From positions 1 through 45,876 of the forward strand of contig JAYGCN010000254.1 in the NCBI GenBank assembly GCA_046583315.1: DNA of 45,876 nt, read 5' to 3'. This DNA is from Candidatus Hydrogenedentota bacterium (GTDB lineage: Bacteria > Hydrogenedentota > Hydrogenedentia > Hydrogenedentales > GCA-2746185). Below are positions 12,534 to 37,986 of the stretch, piece by piece. The notes under the pieces were generated by a model. The model was given only the letters and a program-made list of their open reading frames with translations. It did not search any database and was not told where the DNA came from. The first letter of the stretch is position 1; each line of letters begins with the position of its first letter. The position numbers were made by a program, and so were the translations under genes.

Positions 12534-12545
12534 CGAGAAACGACG

Positions 12546-15856: not shown

Positions 15857-15875
15857 TCACCTCCCGGCGCGTATC

Positions 15876-16772: not shown

Positions 16773-16884
16773 GGCAACAACCCGGAGCCCCGTTTACAAC
16801 CGCATTTGGTGTACACCGTTATACCGCGTATGCTTGGGAAAACGCAAATTATGCACATTCGGCCGTCCCTCTTGAAATCAACGC

Positions 16885-17223
16885 CTATATCGTTACGTCC
16901 AGATCGTGATCATCCGGATCCTGCAAAACTTCCTTCTCTTCACTGGCCGTATAGACTGTGTGCGACTGTTCGTTAGTGGGCCCTTTTTTCCGTTTTCCGC
17001 GTTTTTTCGCCGAAGGATTCTTGTTGCGCCCGTCTGCATCGATCCGCGAATGCTCGGCTTTCTCGGTCTCGTTTACCTGGGTCTCGCGAGCGTGATCGTT
17101 TTCCTTCGATTCGGTCGCCGCATGTTGTTGCGCGGCCAGCGATGAACGGCTGGCCACATCCTGCATGCGTTCGGCCATGTGTACCCGTGAAATTTCAGAC
17201 AGCATGTCGATAGGCTGAGGCAT
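16885..17223 (-). CDS. Hypothetical charged, low-complexity protein immediately downstream of fliA
   Basis: 112 aa rich in E/K/R/S and predicted to be largely disordered, with no conserved motif. Position and size are compatible with, but not evidence for, an anti-sigma-28 (FlgM-like) role. Confidence 0.35.
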   Translation of the reverse strand: MPQPIDMLSEISRVHMAERMQDVASRSSLAAQQHAATESKENDHARETQVNETEKAEHSRIDADGRNKNPSAKKRGKRKKGPTNEQSHTVYTASEEKEVLQDPDDHDLDVTI

Positions 17224-17234
17224 ATGAACCTCCG

Positions 17235-18005: not shown

Positions 18006-18922
18006 CCCAAACTCTCAATTCGTTCCCTGGGGCTGATGATTTCTGTTATGCGCAGCCCGAATTTTTCGTCCACCACAACCACATCCCCCCGGGCGATTAG
18101 TCGTCCATTGATCAATAATTCCACCGGCTCGTCCACCAAATGACCGACCTCAAGAATTGATCCCGGCCCCATATTCAGCACATCGCCGATCGGCATTTCT
18201 ATTTTACCCAGGCGTGCGGTGGCGGTTAGGTCTATCCCGAGAATCACGTCCAGATTCTCAGGAAGATTCTCCCCGGCATATCCGCCGGATTCTTGATCCG
18301 GTGTAAAGCCGCTGAGAATATCCTTCATTTCGTCATCGCTCACAAGTGCCTCGTCGGCCTCTTCGGGTGCTTCAGATGCGTTGGCAGGAACGCGCGACGC
18401 GAGTACATCGGAGGTCAATACATGGGATGTGCCTTCGAAGTGGGTATCGGCCGAGAATGTAAATAGCGAAGACATCGGACCATCTCCGTGCGAGGCCAAC
18501 AACTCTCCCGCGGCCGCGACTTCCCGGATCACCACCTCGTGGCTCTCGATTTCCAAGGGCTCGCCGACAAGCCCCGCAAGTTCAGCGAGTGCGCCGGAGA
18601 TCGCAATCCCGGCAATCTCTGTTAAGGTCTCAGTATCCGCATCACTCAGGGCGTCGCTTGCGGTGGCTTCGCCTGTACTCTTGAGCGAGGCTATTTTCGT
18701 GGCTTCTTCCATGGTAAACAAGAGTCCCAGTGTGCCGCCACCCGCCACGCGTGCTTCCATGGAAACGGTGTTCTCGGCCAAGAAACCGGCAAGAGCCTCC
18801 TCGTCAAGCGCATCGAAACTGCCGATTTCTGTGGAGAACGGGGTTGACAGTGCCGTCTCAAAAGCACTGGAGAGCCCCTTGAGAATACTGGTCATCAATG
18901 CTTGCGTCGCTTCTTCGTCCAT
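18002..18922 (-). CDS. fliY: Flagellar motor switch protein FliY (CheC-like domain fused to a FliN/SpoA domain)
   Basis: The C-terminal FliN domain reads LDVILGIDLTATARLGKIEMPIGDVLNMGPGSILEVGHLVDEPVELLINGRLIARGDVVVVDEKFGLRITEI. The N-terminal acidic CheC-like region is typical of FliY-type switches. Confidence 0.85.
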   Translation of the reverse strand: MDEEATQALMTSILKGLSSAFETALSTPFSTEIGSFDALDEEALAGFLAENTVSMEARVAGGGTLGLLFTMEEATKIASLKSTGEATASDALSDADTETLTEIAGIAISGALAELAGLVGEPLEIESHEVVIREVAAAGELLASHGDGPMSSLFTFSADTHFEGTSHVLTSDVLASRVPANASEAPEEADEALVSDDEMKDILSGFTPDQESGGYAGENLPENLDVILGIDLTATARLGKIEMPIGDVLNMGPGSILEVGHLVDEPVELLINGRLIARGDVVVVDEKFGLRITEIISPRERIESLG

Positions 18923-18936
18923 TTTTCACCCCTCGC

Positions 18937-19920
18937 TTAATCTTGAATCAATGAAATAATCTGCACCGAACTCTGTTCACCCTTCTTGCCGGGCAACCCG
19001 GTGAATCGAGGAACACCCCCCACGCGAATGTCGATAGGCATATTGTGCTTAGACCCCAATGTCACAACATCACCCACCTGCAATCGCGCCACATCTTCCA
19101 ACGACAACGTCGTTTGACCGAGAATCGGTTCAACGGCGATTTTGGAATTCACTACGCTGTGTGTCAATGCCGCACGCGTTTGCGACGCCACGGCCTTGCT
19201 CATTTCGCGCTGGAAATGCGTCTGGGAAGAAATCTGATCAAGAATCGGATTGAGCACCATCAGCGGGATGCATATATTCATCGAACCGACCGACTCGCCG
19301 ATGTAGATTTTGAAGCCGAGCAGAATGACCATCTCGCTACCCTCGACAATTTGTACAATCAGTGGATCGCTTTCCTGACCCACCACTTTCATGTCCATCT
19401 CGATAAGTTTTTCCCATGCACGTTTCCAGCTATCCAGAATCATCAGCACGATACGGTAAACGATACCTTCTTCAATTTCGGTCAACTCGCGCTGTTGTGA
19501 CAAGGCTACACCTTTGCCACCCAAAACGCGATCAACGATGGGGAAAACCATAGCCGGCCCCATCTCCAACACAGCGCGGCCTTCCAAAGGAGACATGTCA
19601 ATCGTGGACAGCGAGGTTGGACGCGCAACCGACAGGATAAATTCGTCATACGTAAGCTGATCGATGGAGACCAGGTCAATGCGAACCATCGTACGCAAGA
19701 AGGGAGGCAATATAATTCCGATTTCCCGCGTAAACGCCTCGAAGATACTTTGCAGCCCCTTGAGTTGCTCTTTGGAAACACGTTCGGGTCTGCGGAAATC
19801 GTAGGAGGTAAAGACCGGGCCCTCAGAAGCAACTGCGGCATCGACCGCCTCGTCGATATCGCCATCGGACACGGCCGAGAGCAATAGATCGACTTCTTCT
19901 TGACTTAGTATATCAGCCAT
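18937..19920 (-). CDS. fliM: Flagellar motor switch protein FliM
   Basis: The N-terminus has the MADILSQEEVDLLL CheY-P binding motif, followed by the FliM middle domain and a C-terminal SpoA-like segment (…VGDVVTLGSKHNMPIDIRVGGVPRF). Confidence 0.9.
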   Translation of the reverse strand: MADILSQEEVDLLLSAVSDGDIDEAVDAAVASEGPVFTSYDFRRPERVSKEQLKGLQSIFEAFTREIGIILPPFLRTMVRIDLVSIDQLTYDEFILSVARPTSLSTIDMSPLEGRAVLEMGPAMVFPIVDRVLGGKGVALSQQRELTEIEEGIVYRIVLMILDSWKRAWEKLIEMDMKVVGQESDPLIVQIVEGSEMVILLGFKIYIGESVGSMNICIPLMVLNPILDQISSQTHFQREMSKAVASQTRAALTHSVVNSKIAVEPILGQTTLSLEDVARLQVGDVVTLGSKHNMPIDIRVGGVPRFTGLPGKKGEQSSVQIISLIQD

Positions 19921-20053: not shown

Positions 20054-20905
20054 TCAAGACGTACCCATCAGTCGGTTCACGATACGTCGCAATCGGATAC
20101 CCACGTAGCTGTCCATCATTGAAAGGGCATCCAGATCACCCCGGACTTTCTGTTGAAAGGTCTCCATCGTGTCGCTCCGGTCGATCCAGATTCTCGGAAT
20201 TTCCCAGCGCGACGAAGAACTCGACACTGGACCGTAACGATTCGAAACCGCATAGGAATAGTTCGCCCGTCGAACACATTGCACGCTCACCGGGTCGTAA
20301 TCCATCGCAGAGCCGAATGGATAGGCAAAGGCTTCGATCGCTTCGCCAAGATGTTCTTCGAGCAAACGGGTCGAGTCAATAATTTCCGACTCCTGGGCTG
20401 CCTCGGACAAAGAGGAAAGCCTCGCATGATTCATCGTGTGCCCCCCTATCGTCACCCCCAACCCCTTCAATTCCAAAATCTCTTCCCACGTCATCAGCCG
20501 CGCATCCTCGGTAGGCAATTCGTGATCCAAAAATCCGCCCGCACGCCCCGGCACCACAAAGACCGTTGCGGGAAATGAATACGCATTCAAGATAGGAGCC
20601 GCGTTCGTCAGATTGTCCCGAAAACCATCGTCAAAGGTTATCGCGACTCCTTCTTTAGCCGCCACCGCATCGCCCAATGAAATCACCGTCGCGTTTTCCG
20701 AGAGCCACTGCATCTGCTCTTGAAACGATTCAGGGGTCACGTTCATTTCATGGTCACGCCTGCCGATGCTGTGGTAGGTCAGCACGCGCGTCTTGTGAGG
20801 CCCACTAACCGATACCGCATTCACCCCCCGAGCAACCGATTTACTGGCCGCTTTCAATGCCGACTTCAGTCGATTACGACTCATCGCATCGCTCCGACGA
20901 TTCAC
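20054..20905 (-). CDS. Polysaccharide deacetylase (NodB-homology, CE4 family)
   Basis: …VLTYHSIG…VAITFDDGFRDN…ATVFVVPG…GHTMNHARLS are the NodB-domain motifs, including TFDDG. It overlaps the upstream GT2 gene by 32 nt. Confidence 0.8.
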   Translation of the reverse strand: MNRRSDAMSRNRLKSALKAASKSVARGVNAVSVSGPHKTRVLTYHSIGRRDHEMNVTPESFQEQMQWLSENATVISLGDAVAAKEGVAITFDDGFRDNLTNAAPILNAYSFPATVFVVPGRAGGFLDHELPTEDARLMTWEEILELKGLGVTIGGHTMNHARLSSLSEAAQESEIIDSTRLLEEHLGEAIEAFAYPFGSAMDYDPVSVQCVRRANYSYAVSNRYGPVSSSSSRWEIPRIWIDRSDTMETFQQKVRGDLDALSMMDSYVGIRLRRIVNRLMGTS

Positions 20906-21764
20906 TTTCTTCCATCACGATTCGCCGATTGGTGCACCATCCCCAGCCATAACCCAAGGCATAAGAACAATACGCCGCGAAACGCATGAACTTGCCCGAT
21001 GCCAGAGCCATCAACAAGCGAAGTGGATAGCGCGCGATCCGATATCCTGGCGTCATCCGGGGCTGAAAATTATTTTCATGCAGGGACTCATGCGTTTCGT
21101 ACACCGTCTCCGGTTGAAAGCGCTGCGCATACGCCGCACCCTTGCCATTGCGGAAAAAAATCTTGAGTAATTTCCTCCAGCCATCAGGTAAAGGATGGTA
21201 GATTCGCGTGTTCGGTGCCAACACCACCCGATATCCCGCTTCCCGCAATCGCACACGCAGATCCGGGTCCAGTCCGCGCACAATGTCCTCACGCTCACGA
21301 CCAACGGAATTAAACACCTCGACTCGCATCGCGCAGCAACCGTGGCACGCGAAATCACTGTCCGTGACAACATCGACGACGGGCGTGTTGAATCTCGGGA
21401 ATTCCCCGGCGGCCTTTTGCTGAAATCTGGAGGATTCAGGCGGTGTTACGATGCTGGCACCCGCCATTCCAATAGATTTGTCCTCCTTCAGTATTTGGAC
21501 AAGTGTCTCGAAAACATGCTCGTCAGCCAGACGACTGTCGTCATCCAGCACAATCAAGATGTCCCCTACTGCCTGGTCGGCCCCCTGATTAATGGCCTTA
21601 CCCTGCGGAAATATCCCCTTCACCATACAGATCTCAAAGTCTGTATAGGTCTGCGCCGCAACACTTTCCAGCAAACCGGGCATACAACCGTCTCGATACC
21701 CGTCGCTGGACGGAATAATCACAGACACGGCGGGTCGAGAGTCTTTTTGAGAAGTGGATTGCAT
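20874..21764 (-). CDS. Family 2 glycosyltransferase (GT-A fold)
   Basis: PAVSVIIPSSDGY…LLESVAAQTYTDFEICMVKG…GDILIVLDDDSRL carries the GT2 N-terminal signature with a DDD motif. Start taken at MQSTSQ (21764); the ORF opens at 21860. Confidence 0.8.
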   Translation of the reverse strand: MQSTSQKDSRPAVSVIIPSSDGYRDGCMPGLLESVAAQTYTDFEICMVKGIFPQGKAINQGADQAVGDILIVLDDDSRLADEHVFETLVQILKEDKSIGMAGASIVTPPESSRFQQKAAGEFPRFNTPVVDVVTDSDFACHGCCAMRVEVFNSVGREREDIVRGLDPDLRVRLREAGYRVVLAPNTRIYHPLPDGWRKLLKIFFRNGKGAAYAQRFQPETVYETHESLHENNFQPRMTPGYRIARYPLRLLMALASGKFMRFAAYCSYALGYGWGWCTNRRIVMEESESSERCDES

Positions 21765-22093
21765 GACGAGACCCAATGTACCTAAAAAAGGGGCGTAATT
21801 CCATCCTATCGGACGAACAGCTCCAAGACCGGAGATCCCTTCGAAATTCAATAAAAGCAATTATAGATGAGTACACAACTATGTTGTGGAGAAGCGAAAG
21901 GAGCGTTCCTCAACGAAAATTATCCACAACACTAACAATTCGTCCTCAATCCCGTCCTCAAGATGGGTGGTAAAAGTATCATTGTGATAATAATGATGCT
22001 ATTTTAAGTGTTGAGTATATCGAACGTCTCCCTAGTTGGAGATTATTATTGGACTCAAACACAATATATAGATTTCGTTATAAAAAATCTTGC

Positions 22094-22135
22094 ATATATT
22101 GATAAGTACTGGTATCATCACGCTATATATTGATG
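22094..22135. promoter_or_regulatory. AT-rich intergenic region with a direct repeat TATATATTGAT(N18)TATATATTGAT; candidate operator/promoter region for the 22234 operon
   Basis: catATATATTGATaag at 22094-22105 and ctATATATTGATgg at 22123-22135. The surrounding roughly 190 bp (about 21990-22180) is around 30% GC, against about 57% for the window. Confidence 0.3.
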
Positions 22136-22233
22136 GTTTTTATCGATTTAGTAGCACATATTGTATGTAAAAAGTACTATACGTGCGCATGGATTCATGC
22201 TCCAATATCAGCACACTTAGGGTGGGGGAACAC

Positions 22234-23790
22234 ATGTCGAACAGAAGTCTACTTGTCAGGATTCCAGCCTTTCCCTTCACTATCGATGCGCTAAGGCCCA
22301 ACAGATTTCTTGCAACCCTTGCCGCACAACTTCTACATGAACAATGGATTACAACGATTTTGGATTACGGTACGGTGGAAGGATTGGAGCGTCTTGACCC
22401 GCAAGAGCCACGGACCGAATTGCATGCTGTCGCTTCGAAATCGACCTCGATTACATCGCTACTGAATCGCTGGCGAAAGACCGCCCACCCCCGGGAACAT
22501 TCGAATCGTCAACACCAGATGTGGGAATCGATTGGGCGGGAGATTATCGACAGAGGGGACTTGGGTTTCGTTGTTTTTGATGTTGCACGGCGCGACGATC
22601 AGGATGCGCTCAATGTGATCATTCCCATGATTCGTTATTACCGACCCTCACTTCCCATTATCGGAGTGGGCGATTTTTTTCGACTCGATGAGTCCCATCT
22701 GGTCGAAGGTGTGTCGCTTTTCGACTGCATCTATTGGGGCGATTGCGATGAGGGGTTCACGCGCTTCGTTTCAACATTGGACAGACCGGATGACTGGAAT
22801 GAGATTCCCTTCCTGGCGTATTCGGACTCGGTACGCATGGTCATTACGCGGGAATGTGACAGTACAGCCTGCGCGACTTTCGCCACACCGGATTATTCCC
22901 GATCCGTCTACCCGGCATTGTATGACGAAACGAAACTCCTTCTTTTCGACGTCGAGGAAGTCCGAATCAATGCTGACAATCGAGCAATCGCACTCAAATC
23001 CCCTGCCCAGCTAACCAATGAAGTAAACGCGATTATGAGAGATCACGGTAGTCGTGCGTTTCATTTGTTGGGCGCGATGAACGATTACCACCACGCCGAG
23101 GCACTGGCGTATGAGTTTCTGGCCCGTCGTCTGCACATTCGCTACACACGCGATTGCCACATCGCCTCAACGCCAACTTCTACGGTTACGGCACTTCGCT
23201 CATCAGGATGTTATGGGGCAAGTTTTCAAATAGACACGGGGAGTCAACGCCTTCTCGATCTCCATTACGATGCCGGTTTTACGGTGACGGAAGTGGAGCA
23301 GACATTGCGCGCGTGCCTGTTCTCCAACTTATACACCGTGATGCATTTTTCCTATCCCTGTATCGAGGATGATTATCACACAAAGGCCGAGACCCTGCGC
23401 GTGATCGAACGCGTAAAGCCGAACAGTGCCCCCTTCTCAATTCCTTCGCAGAATCATCAGCACAAGTCTGATTTGAAGCGTCGTTTCCGTGCCTTCTCCA
23501 AAACACGTAGCGTGTCCGATATTCGACATGAGCACAACGACGTGATCGAAGAAGTTGAACAGTGTGGGATTTCGACGCGCATCACGGCACCCATCGCACT
23601 TATGGCGGAACTTGCCGGGTTTCGCGGACAGGAAGAAGAGTTTCTTGAAGAAACATTATTTCAACTTATGACCGGGGACGCGATGGGTCTTCGAGCGATG
23701 CTGGGTATCCTGAACAAGAATGCGGCGCAACCAGACGGTGCTGTTCGTTTCAAGCCCTTCAGCACATACCGAGATGTGGTGGGCAATTGA
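22234..23790 (+). CDS. B12-binding-domain/radical-SAM-like protein with a degenerate Fe-S motif (CDSTACATF in place of CxxxCxxC)
   Basis: The N-terminus LLVRIPAFPF…LATLAAQLL…ITTILDYG and …VIIPMIRYYRPSLPIIGVGDFF…DCIYWGDCDEGF match the B12-binding domain pattern. MVITRECDSTACATFATP sits where class-B radical SAMs have SRGCP.xCsFC. A later segment, FQIDTGSQRLLDLHYDAGFTVTEVEQ, resembles the GiESGSqrvLk…K motif. Start taken at the ATG at 22234 with a GGGGGAA RBS; the ORF opens at 22183. Confidence 0.65.
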   Translation: MSNRSLLVRIPAFPFTIDALRPNRFLATLAAQLLHEQWITTILDYGTVEGLERLDPQEPRTELHAVASKSTSITSLLNRWRKTAHPREHSNRQHQMWESIGREIIDRGDLGFVVFDVARRDDQDALNVIIPMIRYYRPSLPIIGVGDFFRLDESHLVEGVSLFDCIYWGDCDEGFTRFVSTLDRPDDWNEIPFLAYSDSVRMVITRECDSTACATFATPDYSRSVYPALYDETKLLLFDVEEVRINADNRAIALKSPAQLTNEVNAIMRDHGSRAFHLLGAMNDYHHAEALAYEFLARRLHIRYTRDCHIASTPTSTVTALRSSGCYGASFQIDTGSQRLLDLHYDAGFTVTEVEQTLRACLFSNLYTVMHFSYPCIEDDYHTKAETLRVIERVKPNSAPFSIPSQNHQHKSDLKRRFRAFSKTRSVSDIRHEHNDVIEEVEQCGISTRITAPIALMAELAGFRGQEEEFLEETLFQLMTGDAMGLRAMLGILNKNAAQPDGAVRFKPFSTYRDVVGN

Positions 23791-23793
23791 CCG

Positions 23794-25044
23794 ATGCAAA
23801 ATGACTCTCTCAATATCGTCATCACCGGAATCGGCGTACTGGCTCCCAACGGAATCGGGCGTGCGGAATTCTGGGATGCCCTGGAAAACGGGCGCTCAGG
23901 CATTCGCTTGCTGGATCGCTTCGACCCACTTGATTTACCGTGCCGAATCGCGGGCCAAGTCTGGGATTTTGATCCCCATCAGTATCTATCCAAGGCCAAT
24001 GTTAAACGTTGGCATCGTGTAGTGCATCAATCCGTGGCAGCGACGAAATTGGCCATGGAGGATGCCCAATTTGACGATGCCGGATACGATCTCGAGCGAG
24101 TCGCCGTGGCCATCGGAAGCAGCGTCAGCGATCGCGATGAGGAATACGACCAAATTCGGGTCGCCATCGCCGAACACGGCTGGTCCGGCATTGAACAATT
24201 CTCGTCCAGCACCAATTCCGCACACGCATCCACCGCCAATGTCTGCGCTCAATACAAATTCCGCGGACCTGCCATCACCATCGGCTCCGGATGTGCGACA
24301 GGCCTCGATACAATCGCGTGGGGCACCAACCAGATTCGAAACGGCCACGCCGATGTTGCCATTGTCGGCGCATCCGAGAATCCGGTCACTTATCCCGTCA
24401 TGTGCTGTGCCCAGGCCATTGGGATCCTGTCCCAGAATAATGATGAACCCGACAAAGCCATGCGCCCCTTTGACCACGATGGAGACGGTCTCGTATTAAG
24501 TGAAGCAGCGGTGGTTCTAGTACTCGAACGCGCATCGACAGCCCGAAAGCGCAACGCCCCCATCTTCGCAGAAATTGCCGGTGGTGGCGCAGCTTCCGAA
24601 GGCGGAAACGCATTACTCCTAGAACGAAGCGGAGAAGCAGTATCCCGTGCGGTCTTGGGTGCCGTTCGAAATGCAGGCATGAACCCGCAAGACGTAGATT
24701 GTATTCAGGCGCACGGTGCTGGACTTAGCACCTACGACAAAGCTGAAGTCCAGGCCTACAGAACCGCGTTCGGCGCGCACGCCACACGAATCCCCATCTC
24801 TGCGGTCAAATCGATGACGGGCCAACCCTACTCGGTAGGAGGCCTGTTGGGGGTCGCAGGTGGATGCATGTCACTGACGACGGGCATCATTCCCCCCACC
24901 ATCAATTTCACCTCCCCGGCCGAAGGATGTGACCTGGATTTCGTGCCCAATGAGGCCCGGCTCAATGCCCCATCCAACGTACTGGTAACAGCCATGAGCT
25001 TTGGCGGCACACATTCCTCGCTCATGCTTCGTAAAGTGGCATAA
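23794..25044 (+). CDS. Beta-ketoacyl-ACP synthase, FabF/KAS II-like, with a Cys-His-Gln triad
   Basis: KAS fold motifs are present: the active-site Cys in ITIGSGCATGLD and the first His in DCIQAHGAGLS. The position of the second catalytic His reads KSMTGQPYSVGG. This is judged against my recollection of E. coli FabF (KSMTGHLLGAAG), with the same spacing to the PPTIN motif. The C-terminal …EGCDLDFVPNEAR… follows. The gene starts 4 nt after the upstream stop. Confidence 0.85.
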   Translation: MQNDSLNIVITGIGVLAPNGIGRAEFWDALENGRSGIRLLDRFDPLDLPCRIAGQVWDFDPHQYLSKANVKRWHRVVHQSVAATKLAMEDAQFDDAGYDLERVAVAIGSSVSDRDEEYDQIRVAIAEHGWSGIEQFSSSTNSAHASTANVCAQYKFRGPAITIGSGCATGLDTIAWGTNQIRNGHADVAIVGASENPVTYPVMCCAQAIGILSQNNDEPDKAMRPFDHDGDGLVLSEAAVVLVLERASTARKRNAPIFAEIAGGGAASEGGNALLLERSGEAVSRAVLGAVRNAGMNPQDVDCIQAHGAGLSTYDKAEVQAYRTAFGAHATRIPISAVKSMTGQPYSVGGLLGVAGGCMSLTTGIIPPTINFTSPAEGCDLDFVPNEARLNAPSNVLVTAMSFGGTHSSLMLRKVA

Positions 25045-25086
25045 CATATTCCGATTTATCGGGTAGACTATAGTTAATACAACACG

Positions 25087-27654
25087 GTGGTACAAAGTCG
25101 TATGGGACAAAACCTTCCATCCATAGTCAACATGCTGGTAGCTACAACGTGCCTGAGCCTGGGTATCGTTGTACTCGTGCGCAATCCCCGCAAATTGACC
25201 CATCAGGCTTTTGCGCTACTGACATTCAATCTGACGCTCTGGGCCATTGGTGTATTCGGCGTGGTTCAATCCACCTCCGTCGAAAGCGCGACAATTTGGA
25301 TTCATTTCGCCGAGGTCGCCTCGTGTTTCATACCCGCCACGCTCTACCACTTTGTCGGCTACTTTCCAAAAGGCAAATTCGATGGTAGCACGCGACTGCT
25401 CTCCGTATTGTACGGTCTCGCCATCGTTCTCTCACTGAATTCGCTCACGCCCAACTATATTTACAATGTCGAGTTGGTCGAAGGCGGTCTACCCAAGGCC
25501 CAACACCACGGTAGCATCCTGTTTTTTCTTATTACGGCCGTTTCATCCATTCTCGCCGTGCACCGTAATCTGCGCCGTAAATACAAAGATGCCCAAGGTT
25601 TTGAACGACGCCAGATTCAATTTGTGGTCACCGGTTGCTACACCGTGGCGTTTACCGCAGTACTCCTGATTCTTCTTGAGCAGCTATTCAAGATTCAGTC
25701 GATGCAGGCCTATGGACCAACCGGCATTCTTCTGCTCATCGTTCCCTTTGCCTATGCGATGGTACGGTACCACTTGCTCGACACGCGTGCCTTTCTCTCT
25801 CGTCTTGGTGTCTACATTGGTTCAATCAGCTTCGTCGTATTGACCATCATCGCAATCAACAACCTCGTCGACATTCTGCTACCAGACAACCCTGAAAATG
25901 CCTTCGTTGTGTCAGCGGTGCTCTCCGCCATCATCATCTCCCTTATCTTCCAAACCGTTTACACCGCAGCCGAATATTTTATCGAAGTAACCTTGTTGCG
26001 ACAGCGATACGACATTGACAAATTGTATCGGCGCATTGCCGAGCAAGCCGGTGAATCCTCCGATCTCGAGAAGTTACTTTCGTCCATTTCAAAAGACATC
26101 GAGGAAACCATCGGGGTCGATGTGGTCCGCGTACTCCTGCTCGATCAAGACGACCCGGATTTACTCACCACAGAATTTACGACCGTCTCCAATGAAGAGC
26201 CAATACGCACTCGCGAGCATCGCGTCCTGCTGGAATATTTTGCCCAACAACCCCGGCCGCTGATCCTCGAAAAGATTCTGCATCGACGTCTGGACGAACG
26301 CATGATTGTCGTCGCACGGCACCTGGCCGATCTGGATGCCTATTTCTGCATGCCATTGCATACGAACAAGGGCCTCATCGGCATCTTGACCATGGGCCAG
26401 AAACGCACCCATGACGTATACTCCGAAGAAGAATTGCTCGCCTTCCGCGCGCTCTCCGGTCCGCTGACCACAGCCATCACCAACGCATGGCTGTATCGTG
26501 AACTTGAGCGTGTTCACCGCCACCAGAGTAACGTTTTCGGTCAAATGCGTGAGGGCGTTGTGGCGGTTAACAATCTGGGTATCGTCACCTTGGTAAACCA
26601 GGCCGCATGCGATTTGGCCGGCACCATCGAACTTGACTCCGCCGTTAATGAGTTGCACTCCGAAGTGGGCGAACTATTGGGACGCACACTGGAACTGCAA
26701 GCGCCCATTCACGACTTCGAAACGACCATTGATGTGCCCGATAGCGGGACCCTCAACGTCTTGATGTCTTCCAGTTGCCTGCACGGCATCGACGGTGAAA
26801 TCGAAGGGGCTGTCGCGCTAATCTATGACCTATCCCAGATTAAAAGCCTCGAAGCAAACGTTCAACGTGCCGATCGCTTATCCTCCATCGGTACGCTCGC
26901 CGCCGGGATGGCCCATGAGATCAAGAATCCGCTGGTCTCCATCAAAACCTTCACGCAGCTCCTGCTTGAGCGCTACTCAGACCCCGATTTCAGAACGACC
27001 TTCCACGAAGTGGTGCCCCACGAAGTGGAGCGTATCGACACCATCGTGACACGCCTGCTGGATTTTGCACGACCCCGTCCCGTTCGATTCGAGCCGCAGA
27101 ATATTCGTATCATCATTGACGAAGTACTCGCGCTGGTGGACAACCAAACGCGGCGTGCGGACATTGAAGTGCAGTTCACGCATCCCGATGAGGATATCGC
27201 AGTTTACGGCGACGAACAACAGTTGCATCAAGTTTTCCTGAATCTCGTAATGAATTCCATCGACGCGATAGAAGAGAAAAAGTCCGGCACATTGAGCATC
27301 AATATCGCCAAAGGCTTTATCACGCCCAACGACGGAAGACCAGGCTCGGTATTCGATACGCAACCCTCAGTAATCGTGACACTGTCCGACACAGGCTGCG
27401 GTATCGCGGCCAAACTACTGCAGGAACTTTTCACTCCATTCTTCACAACGAAAGATGATGGTTGCGGACTGGGTTTGGCCGTCGTTCATGGTATTATAGG
27501 CGAACACGGTGGCACCATTGATGTCTCCAGTGTATTGGGCGAAAGCACAACGATGCGCGTTTCGTTACCCAAAGCAGAACGTATCGAAGTAAATTCGACC
27601 GTCGAGGACGAAGTTGCTCTTCGCGACGCAACAGCAAAGTTCCTCAAGGATTAA
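25087..27654 (+). CDS. Sensor histidine kinase with a multi-helix N-terminal membrane domain, GAF/PAS regions, HisKA and HATPase_c
   Basis: About 8 hydrophobic helices at the N-terminus. The H-box reads LSSIGTLAAGMAHEIKNPLVSIKTFTQLL. The N/G boxes read …NLVMNSIDA…DTGCGI…GCGLGLAVVHGIIGEHGGTI. Confidence 0.85.
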   Translation: MVQSRMGQNLPSIVNMLVATTCLSLGIVVLVRNPRKLTHQAFALLTFNLTLWAIGVFGVVQSTSVESATIWIHFAEVASCFIPATLYHFVGYFPKGKFDGSTRLLSVLYGLAIVLSLNSLTPNYIYNVELVEGGLPKAQHHGSILFFLITAVSSILAVHRNLRRKYKDAQGFERRQIQFVVTGCYTVAFTAVLLILLEQLFKIQSMQAYGPTGILLLIVPFAYAMVRYHLLDTRAFLSRLGVYIGSISFVVLTIIAINNLVDILLPDNPENAFVVSAVLSAIIISLIFQTVYTAAEYFIEVTLLRQRYDIDKLYRRIAEQAGESSDLEKLLSSISKDIEETIGVDVVRVLLLDQDDPDLLTTEFTTVSNEEPIRTREHRVLLEYFAQQPRPLILEKILHRRLDERMIVVARHLADLDAYFCMPLHTNKGLIGILTMGQKRTHDVYSEEELLAFRALSGPLTTAITNAWLYRELERVHRHQSNVFGQMREGVVAVNNLGIVTLVNQAACDLAGTIELDSAVNELHSEVGELLGRTLELQAPIHDFETTIDVPDSGTLNVLMSSSCLHGIDGEIEGAVALIYDLSQIKSLEANVQRADRLSSIGTLAAGMAHEIKNPLVSIKTFTQLLLERYSDPDFRTTFHEVVPHEVERIDTIVTRLLDFARPRPVRFEPQNIRIIIDEVLALVDNQTRRADIEVQFTHPDEDIAVYGDEQQLHQVFLNLVMNSIDAIEEKKSGTLSINIAKGFITPNDGRPGSVFDTQPSVIVTLSDTGCGIAAKLLQELFTPFFTTKDDGCGLGLAVVHGIIGEHGGTIDVSSVLGESTTMRVSLPKAERIEVNSTVEDEVALRDATAKFLKD

Positions 27655-27658
27655 CCAA

Positions 27659-29578
27659 ATGAAAATCATACTGACCCTATCTGACGATCATTCGATTTGC
27701 GAGTCAATCAAGGCCACGTTGCCCGCATCCGACGTGATACTTTTTGAATCTACTCTGGAAAAAGGCATGCGCCGTCTGGTATCCGCGCCGGCCGATCTCG
27801 TGATTCTCGACGACAGCCCCTCCTTCGGCATCCAGGCACTCGAAGAGATCAATGCATTACTGCCCGATCTCCCAATTCTTGTGCTCACGGCAAAACGCAG
27901 CGACGACGCCATCGCGCAATATACCGTGGCGGGCGCCAAAGGCTGTATTCCCAAACCCTTTGACTGCAATGCGCTCAACGAGCAAGTCAATCGCTGCAGT
28001 CAATCGGCATCGACCACGACATCAACGATAAATCAAGTGGCGGCCGCAGATTCGACTTCGAGTTCAATCATGCAACACCAACAAGCCCTTCGCTGGATGA
28101 GTCGAAACACCATGTATCTCGATTCTCCCGATCGATTGATGCAAAGCCTGCTCGACGCGCTCATAGACATCATCGATCCCGCACGGGTCTGCATTCTGAT
28201 GGATCAGAACAACACAATCCGAATCACACACTGCCACGGGATCCCCGAAAATGTCGCGCAATCTCTCACCCTGACCTACACCCAAGGGCTCATGCGGCGT
28301 TTGAGTGTCCAGACCAGCCTCATCGACATTCATGCAACCGAGATCGATGCCGATGTGCGCAAGGAATTGAACTTGCTCGGAGGGACAATCGCCATTCCAC
28401 TGCTCTCCAAAGGCCAGACCTCCGGCGCAGTGGTCCTCGGAGAAAAATCGTCCGGACTGGACTACACCCAATCCGAACGCGACCTGCTCGTGACCATGCT
28501 TCGGTGCACATCGACCTGCCTGGAGCGCTCCACCCAACACACGACAATCACCGCACAACAGCAACGACTCAATACCGTTCTCTCAACCATCACCGCAGGG
28601 GTCGTGACCGTGCGCCCCGACAAAACAATCTCAATGATGAACGAGAGCGCCGAACGGATTCTCCAATTGCGCGCGCCTGAAGTTCTCGGCCAACCAATCA
28701 TTAAACTCGGGTCCGCGTTTGCCGATGTCGTGTTACGCACCATGAAGGAAGGCCAGCCACGCATCCGCCAGGAAATTCGCGATGTCTCAATCAATGGTCA
28801 ATTGGGATTGACCGTGACACCCTTGGGACCCGAAGGCGTCGTCGCGATTTTTTCACGCATTCCCGGAACCAACGTGGAAGATTCACCGGAACACGACATC
28901 TCCTATAGTCCGCTGTGGGAATATCTGGCAACGCGCGTGGCACAAGAAATCAAAAACCCTATGGTACCCATCAATACCTACGCCCAGCTGCTCCCTTCGA
29001 AATACGACTCGCAAGAATTTCGCGAAGAGTTCTCAACAATCGTACAGGAGTCCGTGAGTCGAATTAATCAAGTCGTCGAATCCATCTATGAATTCGCACG
29101 GCATCCGCGCCTGAATCGACACACCAACGATCTCAATGAATCCGTGGAACGCATTCTGAAAACCTGTCGACCCGCCTTTGACAAGCACTCCATAAAAGTG
29201 GAACGGCTGTACATGCGCGACGGTGCGCATGTATCGCTCGATCCGCAAATGTTCGCCCGCGCACTCGAAAATATCGTGACCAATTCCATTGATGCGATGC
29301 CTGATGGCGGAACGCTGACCATCGAAACCAAACAGGAAGACGGTACCTGCTCACTCTCCGTAGCCGATACGGGCGCGGGTGTCGACGACAAAGACGCGCA
29401 ACTCATTTTCATGCCCTTCTTCAGTACCAAGGAAAATGGAATGGGTCTGGGGCTAACCATGGCCGACCGCATCATCAAGGAACACAACGGCACCATTGAA
29501 CTCGATACCCACGCGGAACACGGCGGACGATTTATTCTGAGTCTGCCGACAACATCAAAAAATCAAACGACCAACTAA
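27659..29578 (+). CDS. Hybrid signalling protein: receiver domain, GAF, PAS, then histidine kinase (HisKA plus HATPase_c)
   Basis: The N-terminal REC-like fold reads MKIILTLSDDHS…DLVILDD…PILVLTAK…IPKPF. The H-box reads LATRVAQEIKNPMVPINTYAQLL. The G-box reads ENGMGLGLTMADRIIKEHNGTIEL. The start is 4 nt after the upstream stop. Confidence 0.85.
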   Translation: MKIILTLSDDHSICESIKATLPASDVILFESTLEKGMRRLVSAPADLVILDDSPSFGIQALEEINALLPDLPILVLTAKRSDDAIAQYTVAGAKGCIPKPFDCNALNEQVNRCSQSASTTTSTINQVAAADSTSSSIMQHQQALRWMSRNTMYLDSPDRLMQSLLDALIDIIDPARVCILMDQNNTIRITHCHGIPENVAQSLTLTYTQGLMRRLSVQTSLIDIHATEIDADVRKELNLLGGTIAIPLLSKGQTSGAVVLGEKSSGLDYTQSERDLLVTMLRCTSTCLERSTQHTTITAQQQRLNTVLSTITAGVVTVRPDKTISMMNESAERILQLRAPEVLGQPIIKLGSAFADVVLRTMKEGQPRIRQEIRDVSINGQLGLTVTPLGPEGVVAIFSRIPGTNVEDSPEHDISYSPLWEYLATRVAQEIKNPMVPINTYAQLLPSKYDSQEFREEFSTIVQESVSRINQVVESIYEFARHPRLNRHTNDLNESVERILKTCRPAFDKHSIKVERLYMRDGAHVSLDPQMFARALENIVTNSIDAMPDGGTLTIETKQEDGTCSLSVADTGAGVDDKDAQLIFMPFFSTKENGMGLGLTMADRIIKEHNGTIELDTHAEHGGRFILSLPTTSKNQTTN

Positions 29579-29593
29579 CACGAAAAGGCCACC

Positions 29594-30982
29594 ATGAGTA
29601 CCATACTCGCAATCGACGACGAAGAAAGCGTACGCCAATCCTACCGGGTCATCCTTGAACACCAATACGACCTCGCGCTCGCCGCCAACGGAGACGAAGG
29701 GCTCGCCTTTCTCGACACCCACCAAGTCGATCTCATTCTCTTAGACCTCACCATGCCGGGACTCAGCGGCGAAGAAGTCCTCGATCGACTCCGGGAGCGT
29801 GGTAATTCAACACCCGTCATCGTTGTAACCGCCTCCAATTCGATCACCTCTGCCGTGGAAGCGATGAAACGCGGCGCAACGGACTACATCCAAAAACCCT
29901 TCGATGTTCACGATCTCCAGGCCAATATTGAGCGCGCTATCGAAGAAAGCCGGGACAAACGAGAACTCGAATCCTTGCGCGAGGCGGAATCGATCAACTT
30001 CAAATCGATCATTGGCAACAGCACCGCCCTCAACGAAGCACTCAACAACGCGCGACAAGCCATGAAAGTCGATTCGGCTGTCTTGATTACCGGCGAAAGT
30101 GGAACCGGAAAAGATCTGCTCGCACGCTCCATCCACAACGGTGGCGCCCGATCAAAGCACGCCTTCGTCCCCCTGTCCTGCTGCGCCATTCCAGCCCAAC
30201 TCGTGGAAAGCGAACTCTTCGGATACGAAAAAGGTGCCTTCACTGGCGCGGACAAAAGTCGGGTCGGAAAAATGAAAGTCGCGGATGGCGGCACCTTGTT
30301 TCTCGATGAAATCGGCGAGATGCCCGTCGAAGCACAAGTAAAACTACTGCGTGTCTTGCAGGACAACCGCTTCTATCCCGTCGGTAGCACCAAAGAAATC
30401 AAAGTGGACATTCGCATCGTTTGCGCCACGAATCGCGACCTGCCACAGGCCATCAAGGAGGGTGTTTTCCGCGAAGACCTCTACTATCGCGTCAACGTCC
30501 TAAACATCGAGATGCCGCCCTTGCGCAAACGACGCGAAGATATCCCGCTACTGATCGAACATTTCATCGCCAAGCACTGTCCGCGCGTCAACGCCCGCAC
30601 ACAAATCGTCTCCCCCAAGGCCATGAACCTGATGTCCACCTTCGACTGGCCAGGTAACATCCGCGAACTCGAAAACTCCATCGAACGCCTGCTCGTCTAT
30701 CACGGTCAGGAACACACCATCGATGAAGAACACGTGCGTTCACTCTTCCCCAACGCTTCCGCCACGCCAGCAAACGCGGCTCCCGCAACCGGCCATCTCT
30801 CCGATTACGAAGGCTTGCCACTTGAAGATGCCACCCGCCAAATCGAGGCACACCTCATCTCCCGTGCATTGGAACAGTCGAATTATGTACAATCGCGGGC
30901 TGCGGAAGTGCTCGGAACCACGCGGCGCATCCTCAAATACAAAATCGACCAATTGGGCATCGACGCGGACAAGGCCAGCTAA
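29594..30982 (+). CDS. Sigma-54-dependent response regulator (NtrC family: REC, AAA+ sigma-54 interaction domain, Fis-type HTH)
   Basis: The REC domain reads ILAIDDEESVR…DLILLDLTMPGLSGEE…KPF. The Walker A is GESGTGKDLLARSIH. The GAFTGA motif is present in ESELFGYEKGAFTGA. The C-terminal HTH reads SNYVQSRAAEVLGTTRRILKYKI. Confidence 0.9.
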   Translation: MSTILAIDDEESVRQSYRVILEHQYDLALAANGDEGLAFLDTHQVDLILLDLTMPGLSGEEVLDRLRERGNSTPVIVVTASNSITSAVEAMKRGATDYIQKPFDVHDLQANIERAIEESRDKRELESLREAESINFKSIIGNSTALNEALNNARQAMKVDSAVLITGESGTGKDLLARSIHNGGARSKHAFVPLSCCAIPAQLVESELFGYEKGAFTGADKSRVGKMKVADGGTLFLDEIGEMPVEAQVKLLRVLQDNRFYPVGSTKEIKVDIRIVCATNRDLPQAIKEGVFREDLYYRVNVLNIEMPPLRKRREDIPLLIEHFIAKHCPRVNARTQIVSPKAMNLMSTFDWPGNIRELENSIERLLVYHGQEHTIDEEHVRSLFPNASATPANAAPATGHLSDYEGLPLEDATRQIEAHLISRALEQSNYVQSRAAEVLGTTRRILKYKIDQLGIDADKAS

Positions 30983-31024: not shown

Positions 31025-31921
31025 ATGAGCGTTACAGTAGTAGGTTCAGTCGCACTGGACACGGTAGACACGCCCTCCGGCGAAAACATCGAAGGACTCG
31101 GCGGCGCGGCGACTTTTTTTTCTCTGGCGGCGTCCAATTTCACCGACGTTAATCTCGTCGGCGTCATCGGCACTGATTTTCCCGAAGAACACATCGAATT
31201 ACTACGCTCGAAAGGCATCAACCTGGAGGGCCTCGAACAGGTTGAGGGAAAAACCTTTCGCTGGAAAGGCCATTACCACGACAATCTCAACGTGCGCGAT
31301 ACCCTCGAAACCCACCTCAACGTATTCGAAACCTTCGAGCCGAAACTGCCCGACATCGCCAAAAACGCGCCGTATCTTTTCCTCGGAAACATCCACCCCT
31401 CCATCCAGATGCAGACCCTTGAACAAACCAACCACGAATTCGTTGCGCTCGACACGATGAACCTCTGGATCGATATCGCCAACGACGAACTCAAAGCCAT
31501 CCTCGGCAAAATCGACTGCCTCATCATCAACGACGAAGAAGTCGTGCAGCTCACTGGTGACCACAACATTGTGCGCGCGTCCCGCAAAATTCAGGAGATG
31601 GGTCCGCGCATCGTCGCCTCCAAAAAAGGCGAACACGGCTGTCTCCTCTTCCACGACGATGACATTTTCTCAGCACCCGCCTACCCCATGGAAGAAGTCG
31701 TTGACCCCACCGGCGCAGGCGACTCCTTCGCAGGTGGATTTATGGGATACATCGCTCAACAAAACGACACCTCCTTCGAGACCCTCAAAAAAGCGGTCAT
31801 CCAGGGCTCCGTTGTCGCCTCCTATCTCTGCTCCCAATTCGGACCCGACGGCCTCATCAACATAGGCCCCAAAGAAATCGAAGCACGCTACCAGCAATTC
31901 GTGGAGCTCTCCCGCTTCTAG
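31025..31921 (+). CDS. PfkB-family carbohydrate/nucleoside kinase (ribokinase-like)
   Basis: The N-terminal VVGSVALDTV…GGAATFFSLAAS and the C-terminal anion-hole motif DPTGAGDSFAGGFMGYI (GAGD). Confidence 0.8.
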   Translation: MSVTVVGSVALDTVDTPSGENIEGLGGAATFFSLAASNFTDVNLVGVIGTDFPEEHIELLRSKGINLEGLEQVEGKTFRWKGHYHDNLNVRDTLETHLNVFETFEPKLPDIAKNAPYLFLGNIHPSIQMQTLEQTNHEFVALDTMNLWIDIANDELKAILGKIDCLIINDEEVVQLTGDHNIVRASRKIQEMGPRIVASKKGEHGCLLFHDDDIFSAPAYPMEEVVDPTGAGDSFAGGFMGYIAQQNDTSFETLKKAVIQGSVVASYLCSQFGPDGLINIGPKEIEARYQQFVELSRF

Positions 31922-32129: not shown

Positions 32130-33795
32130 ATGAAGCATAAAACCGCCGTATCAATACTACTTTCGGGTACCCTAACACTCTTCGTGGCGCTTGCCCCACA
32201 CCAAAGCCCGCACACCGTTTTCGCCCAAGAAGAGGTACCCGAATTCAAAGGAAAGATCGAGAAATCATACGAGGACCCGAGGAATGGTGGGCACCCAAGA
32301 AACGCCCACCCGAAGGCGCGCCGAACGTAATCATATTCCTGCTGGACGATACCGATTTCGGACAAATCGGATCCTTCGGTGGCCTGATCAAGACACCCAA
32401 CATCGACCGACTGGCAGCCGGGGGATTACGCTTCAACAATTTCCACACGACCTCCCTCTGCTCCCCATCACGTGCAACGCTTATGGCAGGGTGAAATCCA
32501 CACACGATCGGACTCGGAAGTCACGCGCTGACCGCGATGGGTTTCCCGGGCTACAACGCCATCGTCCCCCCCACCGCCAAATCGGTTGCCAACTACCTTG
32601 AAGCCGAAGGCTACGTCAACTACGCAATCGGAAAATGGGATCACACCCCACTCTACGAAGTCTCCCAACTCGGTCCCTTCGATCGCTGGCCGAGCCATGA
32701 AGGCTTCGCGCACTCCTACACCTTCATGGCCGCCGACGTACACCAATTTGTTCCGGTGCTGTGGGATGACCATCATCCAGAACCCTACCGCCGAACCGAG
32801 CACCTCGACAAAGACCTTGCTGAACGTGCGAATCTATGGATCACGGGACATAAATCACTCGACAAAGAATTACCCTTCATGATGCTCTGGGCTTCAGGCT
32901 CAATGCACTCGCCCCACCAAGCCCCCGATAGCTATCTCGACAAATACAAAGGTAAATTTGATCAGGGATGGGACAAAACCCGTGAGATGATCCTCGAGAA
33001 CCAAAAAGAACTCGGCGTGGTGCCAGGCAACACCAAACTCAGCGGACGCATCCCGGAAATCCCCGCCTGGGATTCTCTTGACGCCGATCACAAGAAACTC
33101 TACTCCCGCCAAATGGAGGTGTTTGCCGCACAACTCGAATACTGCGATGCCCAAATCGGAACTGTCATCGACACGCTGGAACGCATCGGCGAATTGGACA
33201 ATACACTCATCTTCGTCACTTCCGACAATGGTGCCAATTGTGAAGGCGATTGGCCGGTACTTTCAACGAAACTTACGTACTCAACGGAATGCAAACACCT
33301 TTCGAAGCCAATATGCGCCATCTTGACCATTGGGGGAAAACTGACACCTACCCCCACTACCACGCCGGTTGGGCCATGGCCGGAAACACCCCCTTCCCCT
33401 ACTTCAAACAAAGCTCCCACCGCGGCGGACAGGCCGATGCCCTCATCGTCCATTGGCCCAACGGCATCAAAGCCAAAGGCGAGGTGCGTAATCAGTACCA
33501 CCACATCTCCGATATCGCGCCCAGCATCATGCAAGCCGCCGGTATTGAGATGCCCGAAACCTATCACGGCATTCCGCAACAGCCCTTCACCGGAATTCCC
33601 TTCAACTATGCCTTTGACAACGCAGACGCACCCAACGCCAAAAAGGTTCAGTATTATGAAATGTTCGGCAACAGGGCCATTTGGAATGAAGGCTGGAAAG
33701 CAGTAACGCTGCACGGCAATCGCATGCCCTGGATCGTAAACTCGACCTCCGCCTTCGAAGACGACGTCTGGGAACTCTACAACGTGGCCCAGGAA
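32130..33795 (+). pseudogene. Sulfatase (arylsulfatase family) pseudogene, inactivated by two 1-nt frameshifts and an in-frame TGA
   Basis: The signal peptide [23 protein letters not shown] lies in frame 0. The frame switches by about 32280 to …[21 protein letters not shown]…[17 protein letters not shown], which carries the C-x-P-S-R sulfatase signature. An in-frame TGA at 32492-32494 sits where Arg is expected (TGR.P). The text continues NPHTIGLGSH…GFPGYN…SDNGAN, then switches frame again near 33244 to …GTFNETYVLNGM…YHAGWAMAGNTPF…WELYNVAQE. Confidence 0.75.
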
Positions 33796-34125
33796 ATTAT
33801 CCGTCTCGAACACGGCCATACCAGCCTCACCGAACGACTGCCCTGGCTCGTCTCGTTTTCCTTCGGACTGCTCCACGGTTTCGGATTTGCCGGGGCACTC
33901 ACCGAAATCGGCCTGCCTCAGACCGCCATCCCCTTCGCACTGCTCTTCTTCAACATCGGCGTAGAAGCAGGTCAACTGCTGTTCGTGCTCGCGGTACTCG
34001 GAATCCTCCACACCGCGAAACGTTTCTGGACCGCTCCATCACCGGTATGGGCCACCCAACTTCCCGCCTACCTCATCGGCACCGTGGTGGCCGACTGGAC
34101 AATCGAGCGGCTCCTCGCGCTGTAG
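33796..34125 (+). pseudogene. 3' fragment of a polytopic membrane-protein gene fused in frame to the sulfatase remnant (possibly HupE/UreJ-like; uncertain)
   Basis: After YNVAQE, sulfatase homology stops. It is replaced by RLEHGHTSLTERLPWLVSFSFGLLHGFGFAGALTEIGLPQTAIPFALLFFNIGVEAGQLLFVLAVLGILHTAKRFW…, a run of hydrophobic helices typical of a membrane protein rather than a sulfatase C-terminus. Confidence 0.4.

Positions 34126-37617: not shown

Positions 37618-37986
<369 letters not shown>

Follow-up and report, generated by a model that had tools for sequence, protein, structure and literature searches.

A five-gene module of Hydrogenedentota that joins a radical-SAM-derived protein and a ketosynthase to a kinase, a pseudo-kinase, and a sigma-54 activator

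A 45,876-nucleotide (nt) contig of a Candidatus Hydrogenedentota bacterium (GenBank assembly GCA_046583315.1, contig JAYGCN010000254.1; this whole stretch is called the window below) carries five consecutive genes at positions 22234 to 30982. They encode a protein derived from a cobalamin-type radical S-adenosylmethionine (SAM) enzyme, a FabF-like ketosynthase (KAS), a sensor histidine kinase, a pseudo-histidine kinase, and an NtrC-type sigma-54 activator. Comparison of gene content and order indicates that the five genes are an evolutionary unit that predates the Hydrogenedentota and that the window holds this phylum's version of a multi-phylum module. Two members of the module have lost their defining catalytic residues in Hydrogenedentota while staying under selection. 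The parts are of known kinds, the combination is a new variant, and the module is uncharacterised: no published description of it turned up in literature searches on the gene combination, HisKA_7TM, Cys-His-Gln ketosynthases, and radical-SAM pseudoenzymes. Cobalamin-type radical-SAM chemistry, a fatty-acid-type condensing enzyme, and membrane-embedded kinase signalling to sigma-54 are normally unlinked, and their recurrence together across several distant lineages argues that the link is functional.

The block and the gene for a PfkB-family sugar kinase form six open reading frames (ORFs) on one strand, with intergenic gaps of 3, 42, 4, 15, and 42 nt; the first two genes share one reading frame. 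An ORF listing reproduced the gene map and gaps given in a preliminary description of this DNA, and Pfam and NCBIfam returned the domains it had named for the KAS, the two kinases, the activator, and PfkB. The genes and the sites discussed below are as follows.

22234-23790, +, gene 1 (g1), 518 amino acids (aa), descended from a class-B (cobalamin-type) radical-SAM enzyme but lacking its [4Fe-4S]-binding loop
22855-22881, +, C-DSTA-C-AT-F of g1, residues 208-216, a nonconserved interdomain linker
22933-23013, +, residues 234-260 of g1: strand beta-1, then the true cluster-loop position (11-residue deletion)
23794-25044, +, gene 2 (g2), 416-aa FabF-like KAS with active site Cys167-His307-Gln344
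24292-24294, 24712-24714, and 24823-24825, +, g2 active-site codons for Cys167, His307, and Gln344
25087-27654, +, gene 3 (g3), 855-aa sensor kinase with HisKA_7TM, GAF, PAS, HisKA, and HATPase domains (Pfam, NCBIfam)
26908-26931, +, g3 H-box MAHEIKNP, His610
27659-29578, +, gene 4 (g4), 639-aa pseudo-histidine kinase with REC, GAF, PAS, a His-less dimerization and histidine phosphotransfer (DHp) domain, and an apparently intact ATP-binding domain
28937-28960, +, g4 H-box VAQEIKNP, Gln429
29594-30982, +, gene 5 (g5), 462-aa NtrC-type sigma-54 activator with REC, AAA+, and HTH_8 domains (Pfam, NCBIfam)
31025-31921, +, PfkB-family sugar kinase (Pfam), 3' of g5

Gene 1 and its missing cluster site

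Gene 1 (NCBI locus VCD00_15465) is labelled "hypothetical protein," and its homology was visible only by fold and profile-profile methods. Pfam matched it to zero families at E≤0.01, the precomputed Pfam entries of 17 of 17 close homologues were blank, and a profile of the gene 1 family found nothing significant among PDB sequences. NCBIfam gave weak B12/radical-SAM matches at aa 250 to 394. An AlphaFold (AF2) model built on 16 homologues had a predicted local distance difference test (pLDDT) score of 81.6 and a predicted template modelling (pTM) score of 0.83. Its top solved structure by Foldseek was TsrM (E = 1.6e-13), followed by MgmA, AprD4, TokK, and CysS. Comparison by hhalign with an intact class-B radical-SAM sister family gave a probability of 100% (E = 6e-79) over 515 columns. 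Together, the model, Foldseek, and hhalign place an N-terminal B12-type Rossmann-like domain before a partial TIM barrel of the radical-SAM type, the same two-domain fold as in TsrM, TokK, CysS, MgmA, and HpnR-like lipid methylases. The B12-binding plus radical-SAM layout proposed in the preliminary description is thus borne out by structure and profile, while the Pfam families PF02310 and PF04055 that would have identified it went undetected.

A profile of the gene 1 family retrieved 331 cluster representatives at E≤1e-30 from 1.84 billion proteins. The sister family, which is itself uncharacterised, carries PF04055 and PF02310, and its records are labelled Elusimicrobia, Goldbacteria, Omnitrophica, Planctomycetota, and archaea, among others. 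Named families did not accommodate gene 1. Against TIGR04072, a ladderane-type B12/radical-SAM family of lipid biosynthesis, it scored 19.7 bits (cutoff, 360), and sister-clade proteins scored 78 to 109 bits; the scores for BzaD and ApyD were far under the cutoff. Gene 1 and its relatives are invisible to Pfam and stand as "hypothetical" in public records.

No CxxxCxxC motif is present in gene 1, either in the sequence or in the alignments. The homologous cluster site follows strand beta-1 (KLLLFDVEE, residues 234 to 242), where an 11-residue deletion (VEEVR/INADN, residues ~244/245) lies exactly opposite the sister-family motif DESRGCPNxCxFC; relatives have (D/E)SRGCxxxCxxC at this place. Independent homologues at 58% and 55% identity share this deletion, so it is not an assembly artefact. 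The preliminary description had read C-DSTA-C-AT-F as a mutated Cx4C cluster motif. This is a chance pair of Cys residues, unconserved in the alignment, ~30 residues upstream of the true site, and before beta-1 in the model. The absence of the Cys triad, which that reading was meant to explain, holds after correct gapping in the alignments and in hhalign, for the different reason given above. Compared with class-B radical-SAM enzymes, gene 1 thus has full-length profile homology to a PF04055/PF02310 family but a deleted CxxxCxxC loop, no Pfam match, and one conserved Cys (Cys326, the sole Cys conserved among cluster-less members). Since the Fe-S loop is lost, the protein is predicted to be incapable of canonical radical-SAM chemistry, and a noncatalytic or scaffolding role of the kind suggested earlier is a reasonable one for it.

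Loss of the triad can be followed within one operon context. Same-operon orthologues in four loci (L015, L027, L028, and L037) keep the triad as (S/H)(R/G)GCxxxCxxC, and in most others the loop is deleted or eroded, leaving vestiges such as SRGGTHVPH. In a rough neighbor-joining tree of 177 family members, the Hydrogenedentota-type clade contained 27 proteins with the triad, mostly basal or scattered, and 122 without it. The sister clade was almost wholly intact, with one exception that has a one-residue insertion in the motif (CFYGKCNFC). This pattern suggests that the loss was recent and probably repeated, with several independent events. Even the Hydrogenedentota-type proteins that keep the triad are atypical. 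The residue before the last Cys (CxxxCxFC) is Phe in 27 of 27 sister-clade proteins and is aromatic in none of the 27 triad keepers, a departure from class-B radical-SAM enzymes that exists although all three Cys residues are kept.

The other barrel motifs, SSGC, DTGSQRLL, and DDYHTxAETLR, are conserved equally in members with and without the triad, and the ratio of nonsynonymous to synonymous substitution rates (dN/dS) between triad-less orthologue pairs was 0.08 to 0.19. Gene 1 stays under purifying selection, and the loss was not neutral. By these comparisons gene 1 is a selected protein that would be unable to carry out canonical radical-SAM chemistry. One fixed operon context holds radical-SAM proteins that span a canonical motif, an atypical motif, eroded loops, and outright deletion, all under purifying selection. 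This is a natural enzyme-to-pseudoenzyme series, with a parallel loss of the phospho-accepting His in the neighbouring kinase g4. To our knowledge, well-documented radical-SAM pseudoenzymes are rare, and none was found in our literature searches.

The ketosynthase and the signalling proteins

Both ketoacyl-synthase domains of the thiolase fold were found in g2 (PF00109, 137.6 bits; PF02801, 84.8 bits), and its nearest PDB chain was FabF 1j3n (E = 4e-73). Its score against the NCBIfam fabF equivalog was 318.6 bits, which is under the cutoff of 493.75. Aligned with PDB FabF chains, g2 keeps the nucleophilic Cys (SGCATG) and the first His (AHG), and it shares the Lys and gating Phe of FabF/KAS II. 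The second catalytic His of FabF (KSMxGH) is Gln344 in g2 (KSMTGQ), giving Cys-His-Gln in place of Cys-His-His. The KAS is therefore atypical, as had been noted from the sequence. The further suggestion that its catalysis is compromised was not supported. Cys167, His307, Lys339, and Gln344 were each present in 120 of 120 close relatives, gating Phe403 was present in 119 of 120, and the dN/dS of g2 (0.025 to 0.09) was the lowest or near-lowest of the block. In modules from other phyla, the second-His position is Gln (L051, L053, and L062), Asn (L055, L059, and L073), or, once, His (L071). Cys-His-Asn is the triad of KAS III and chalcone-synthase-type enzymes, and by analogy an amide at this position may still support decarboxylative condensation. 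With its active site invariant, g2 is not decayed and probably remains an active enzyme.

As a precedent for FabF homologues next to radical-SAM enzymes, the anammox ladderane cluster (amxFabF2/amxFabFmut), presumed to encode a lipid pathway, comes closest (bioRxiv 10.64898/2026.05.19.726425). The block differs from that cluster in having a single KAS gene with no partner resembling a chain-length factor (CLF), no acyl carrier protein (ACP) or FabZ, and, in gene 1, the far lower than cutoff match to TIGR04072 given above.

The two kinases are paralogues, with 24 to 31% identity over their C-terminal halves, that differ at the residue on which phosphotransfer depends. The H-box His of g3 (MAHEIKNP) was present in 27 of 27 sequences compared, its HATPase_c domain scored 72 bits, and together with the N, G1, and G2 boxes these features make it a sensor histidine kinase. 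In g4 the phospho-accepting His is replaced by Gln429 (VAQEIKNP), and Gln was found at this position in 25 of the 25 proteins compared. Conservation in g4 extends to its N, G1, and G2 ATP-binding boxes and to the motif QE[IV]KN. The protein is liable to be misannotated as an active hybrid kinase. It retains Glu-x-x-Asn, the HisKA phosphatase motif, after the H-box position. The acceptor Asp and the Lys of its REC domain are largely kept, and the Mg-binding acidic pair differs from one orthologue to another (SDD, AEE, SGN, AAN, and others). The second kinase of modules outside Hydrogenedentota keeps its His (SHELKNP, SHEIRNP); therefore, the Gln of g4 is a derived state of this phylum.

g5 matched PF00072, PF00158 (234.8 bits), PF25601, and PF02954, and it has Asp51, the Walker A sequence GESGTGK, and GAFTGA, as in canonical NtrC-type activators. 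The top score of both g3 and g4 was to AtoS, and the top scores of g5 were to AtoC (422.8 bits) and NtrC (417.9 bits), all under the equivalog cutoffs; g5 also scored 339 bits against LuxO. Membership in the PEP-CTERM PrsK/PrsR system was rejected (89.5 versus a cutoff of 300 and 358 versus 502.6). The block thus resembles NtrB/NtrC and AtoS/AtoC in its scores and in the Walker A and GAFTGA motifs of g5, but it has a different seven-transmembrane (7TM) sensor, an extra pseudo-kinase, and enzyme genes in the operon.

The preliminary description had seen in g3 to g5 a three-protein phosphorelay. Because the H-box position of g4 is Gln in every sequence compared, and with no histidine phosphotransfer (Hpt) domain found by Pfam in any of the five proteins, the system is better described as a kinase, a pseudo-kinase, and an NtrC-type activator. 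These sequences are read most economically as His-to-Asp transfer in a single step, with g3 donating to g5 and possibly to the receiver of g4 as well, and with no His-Asp-His-Asp relay; g4 would be a pseudo-kinase that most likely acts as a modulator of g3 or as a dedicated phosphatase of g5. DivL, a pseudo-histidine kinase, carries Tyr at the phospho-His position. g4 likewise lacks the phospho-His, keeps its DHp and catalytic (CA) domains, and is encoded with a bona fide kinase, as in DivL (PMC4211667), RocA (PMC7380576), and PsmA (PMC12963549), which modulate a true kinase. It differs from these proteins in its Gln substitution, in its N-terminal receiver-like domain followed by GAF and PAS domains, and in being a paralogue of the adjacent kinase, and its own modulator role is putative.

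The module within and beyond Hydrogenedentota

A scan of one genome per species identified 42 loci encoding a gene 1 relative, of which 28 are labelled Hydrogenedentota, 9 "uncultured Nitrospirales/Nitrospiraceae," 3 are unnamed, and 1 each are labelled Rhodothermaeota and FCB. When the window proteins were searched by tblastn, the order g1-g2-g3-g4-g5 on a single strand was found wherever the contig was long enough, with 22 complete cases including the window. The five-gene unit read from the window alone is thus co-conserved. PfkB lies 3' of the activator in the window and in 14 other loci, so within Hydrogenedentota the unit probably ends with it.

Loci whose titles name Nitrospirales/Nitrospiraceae, Rhodothermaeota, or the FCB group are L010, L011, L020, L023, L024, L027, L030, L031, L034, L044, and L047. 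Those of their gene 1 proteins that are full length and were included in the tree group within the Hydrogenedentota sequences, and the operon is the same where the contig suffices. Their taxonomy labels are probably wrong or the contigs misbinned.

The intergenic region upstream of gene 1 is shared with a divergent gene pair.

22061-22167, +, conserved promoter/operator region (promoter and operator roles inferred)
20874-21860, -, GT2 glycosyltransferase, divergent from g1 across the common intergenic region
20054-20905, -, PgaB/IcaB-like polysaccharide deacetylase, divergent from g1 and paired with GT2

In the conserved region, TTGCAT-17 nt-TATCAT at 22090-22118, with TGG before the -10 (an extended -10), is sigma-70-like. 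Nearly every Hydrogenedentota locus examined has the pattern TTGCAT-17 nt-TGnTAnnAT, ~100 to 145 nt ahead of gene 1. Four direct ATATATTGTG-like copies surround it: 22061-22072 (at about -60), 22093-22106 (over the -35 and spacer), 22123-22136 (just past the -10), and 22155-22167 (~40 nt further on). A strict form of the repeat pattern matched seven times across the window; four matches fall within the promoter's 100-bp stretch and account for three of the copies, and the remaining copy was identified by eye. The regions before gene 1 from almost every Hydrogenedentota locus examined can be aligned over this layout of promoter and repeats. It looks like a sigma-70-type promoter with an operator array, and the position of the four repeats suggests autoregulation or control by another DNA-binding protein.

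Two candidates for a sigma-54 promoter upstream of gene 1 were rejected: TGGTATCATCACGCT, a near-match, is the conserved extended -10 of the sigma-70-like promoter, and TGGCTAGATGGTAGCA, read on the reverse strand of L001-like loci, lacks phylum-wide conservation. A local sigma-54 promoter for the operon is not supported. Inside the block, the counts of intrinsic terminators and promoters were not above those of shuffled sequence. No riboswitch leader was detected, since an Rfam search of the window at gathering thresholds matched no RNA family. Two weak sigma-54-like sites, neither near the consensus, lie further along the window: TGGCTGTGTGGGTGCT at 41766-41781 (+), 19 nt upstream of a 192-aa ORF (41800-42378) that precedes an SPFH/Band-7 protein, and TGGCATCGTCGATGCT at 37662-37677 (+).

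Beyond Hydrogenedentota, look-ups and a metagenome scan with the sister family yielded about 22 full-length loci, of which ~13 also carry a ketosynthase, a HisKA_7TM kinase, or both. Three of them (L055, L056, and L059) have the identical five-gene order with an intact radical-SAM gene, and two more (L065 and L066) have the full set with the radical-SAM gene displaced. The coupling of a radical-SAM/KAS pair to signalling genes of its own is unusual, as the preliminary description held, and it recurs in other phyla. Catalytic motifs are intact in both the radical-SAM enzyme and the second kinase of these modules. Two loci labelled Elusimicrobia (L051 and L053) combine a ketosynthase with two to four B12-radical-SAM enzymes, a 7TM-GAF kinase, and a receiver; L053 adds an ICMT-family methyltransferase and an HpnR-like companion, and L051 adds a PEMT/ICMT-type methyltransferase and a ThiF-like protein. 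Fusions of the radical-SAM-type enzyme to a KAS or kinase were not found; the longer relatives P0134 and P0145 are without KAS or kinase domains, and P0145 carries a methyltransferase domain.

The other-phylum modules also have companion genes. A REC-(GAF)-HD-GYP regulator lies 3' of the activator in L055 and L059, and rpoN adjoins the module in L053, L055, L056, L058, and L059. A FadL/TodX outer-membrane channel and a REC-kinase are encoded divergently from the module in six loci (L055, L056, L058, L059, L065, and L066), and a FadL gene is also present in L060, whose contig is too short for more. The positions of this divergent FadL/TodX plus REC-HisKA-HATPase operon were as follows.

L055, 4431-7945
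L059, 1119-4766
L065, 11643-14151
L066, about 11637-14155

Near-consensus sigma-54 promoters precede the FadL operon in L059 (TGGCACGCTTTTTGCT), L065 (TGGCACAGTACTTGCA), L066 (TGGCACATCGCTTGCT), and L055 (TGGCATATTTTTTGCA). A sigma-54-like site also precedes the ketosynthase gene itself in L053 and, less clearly, in L062.

Proposed function, alternatives, and flanking genes

The FadL operon as a sigma-54 target, the 7TM sensor, the lipid-type enzymes, and the HpnR- and ICMT-like companions in L053 lead us to propose, with confidence somewhat short of even, a circuit built around a lipid or other hydrophobic compound, in which gene 1 would now be structural or regulatory and g4 a modulator. The radical-SAM enzyme and the KAS would produce or alter a fatty-acyl or other hydrophobic compound. 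The 7TM kinase, embedded in the membrane, would monitor either the compound or what it does to the membrane, and the signal would pass to sigma-54-dependent genes. In the lineage of the window, where the Fe-S loop is lost and purifying selection persists, gene 1 would most likely be a structural or regulatory partner of the ketosynthase or the kinases. The module offers a defined target in the search for new lipid or hydrophobic-signal pathways among phyla that are largely uncultured.

Several observations weigh against this proposal. All genomes used are metagenome-assembled genomes (MAGs) or metagenome contigs, the analysis is computational throughout, and the number of independent triad losses is a rough estimate from the neighbor-joining tree. 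With no ACP, reductase, or dehydratase gene within the block, no product can be proposed. Sigma-54 promoters near the block were found neither in the window nor in 26 related loci, with ±10 kb covered in the Hydrogenedentota loci. FadL, the proposed target elsewhere, is absent from the Hydrogenedentota loci, as are the rpoN and REC-HD-GYP companions, and about 9 of the 22 sister-family loci have no KAS or kinase nearby. Nor is the unit inviolable within the phylum, since in L028 (15457-20183) no activator adjoins the pseudo-kinase and in L046 (4123-7427) the gene 1 homologue is followed directly by the activator, with no KAS or kinases.

A possible but unlikely alternative is that g1 and g2 make no product and instead give the kinase pair a ligand-sensing input by protein contact, the cluster-less radical-SAM fold binding cobalamin, SAM, or a lipid and the KAS forming an acyl-enzyme at Cys167. 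This would fit a gene 1 that has no catalytic loop and is still under selection, a pair that always lies directly upstream of the kinases in several phyla, and a block with no ACP or other fatty-acid-synthesis genes; it also comes closest to the view taken in the preliminary description. The KAS, however, has lost none of the residues that catalysis requires and ranks first or close to it in constraint, no fusion of enzyme and signalling domains was found, and the canonical radical-SAM proteins of other phyla stand with further radical-SAM and methyltransferase enzymes in surroundings that look biosynthetic. We hold it similarly unlikely that a former radical-SAM enzyme and the Cys-His-Gln KAS were recruited as the sensing front end of the kinase, pseudo-kinase, and sigma-54 circuit, with the kinases directly reading the acylation state of the KAS or the binding of cobalamin, SAM, or lipid by the cluster-less barrel. 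If this were true, Hydrogenedentota would display an enzyme-to-receptor transition at successive stages, with the triad intact but atypical, eroded, and deleted. An enzymatic role for gene 1 that dispenses with the cluster, such as that of a cobalamin-dependent polar methyltransferase, appears the least probable of the alternatives. TsrM, the top structural match, is not known to use radical chemistry, and the N-terminal B12-type domain and the three barrel motifs are conserved in cluster-less members; TsrM itself still binds a [4Fe-4S] cluster, and gene 1 lacks a Pfam B12-binding match.

The remaining alternatives concern the link between the enzymes and the kinases. Cotranscription with no functional link, in which g2 is an extra ketosynthase of fatty acid synthesis, g1 a decaying passenger, and g3 to g5 an unrelated regulatory set, is improbable in our judgement. 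Gene 1 evolves two to five times faster than its neighbours, and the block is flanked in several genomes by fliM/fliN/fliA or by GT2 and the deacetylase, which would suit regulation of flagella or exopolysaccharide. The flanks vary, however, around a five-gene core that nearly every locus retains, the association of radical-SAM protein, KAS, and 7TM kinase recurs in distant lineages with different flanks, and the dN/dS of gene 1 is far from neutral. A diffusible cell-to-cell signal, with the KAS (helped by g1) making a fatty-acid-like autoinducer that the 7TM kinase senses, is slightly more doubtful still. A synthase gene does lie beside a membrane-embedded kinase and a LuxO-like activator, and other-phylum modules add a FadL-type channel and an RpfG-like REC-HD-GYP regulator. 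In RpfF/RpfC/RpfG (the diffusible signal factor, or DSF, system), CqsA/CqsS-LuxO, and DesK/DesR, a lipid-type enzyme gene likewise stands beside a membrane-embedded kinase and a regulator, and the REC-HD-GYP and FadL genes of other phyla extend the parallel. The likeness is one of logic only; the enzymes, sensor domains, and regulators of those systems are not homologous to those of the block. FadL and HD-GYP are missing from the Hydrogenedentota loci, the sigma-70-like operon promoter offers no sigma-54 autoinduction loop, and an exported product is not in evidence.

The GT2 and deacetylase pair stands divergently beside the block in seven loci (the window, L001, L004, L009, L024, L029, and L031), and in L047 it lies upstream of a partial gene 1 match. 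It holds the position that the FadL-type operon has in other phyla. Genes fliM, fliN, and fliA are upstream of the block in six loci (the window, L006, L009, L031, L034, and L036). In the window they belong to a flagellar and motility run at 12546-19920 (-) that encodes MotA/ExbB-like and FliK-like (Flg_hook) proteins, DUF6115, a FliA-type sigma factor, FliN, and FliM.

Downstream of PfkB, a sulfatase gene at 32537-34125 is apparently split over two overlapping frames. The ORF at 32537-33706 covers Sulfatase profile positions 77 to 247, and the ORF at 33250-34125 covers positions 247 to 301 together with a HupE/UreJ_2 segment; a frameshift, a pseudogene, or an error in assembly could account for the split. 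An ammonium-transporter ORF at 38386-39345 (-) matches only profile positions 2 to 269 of 399, and the gene may be truncated or frameshifted. A separate small radical-SAM protein of 216 aa is encoded at 36958-37608; it matches PF04055 and is unrelated to gene 1.

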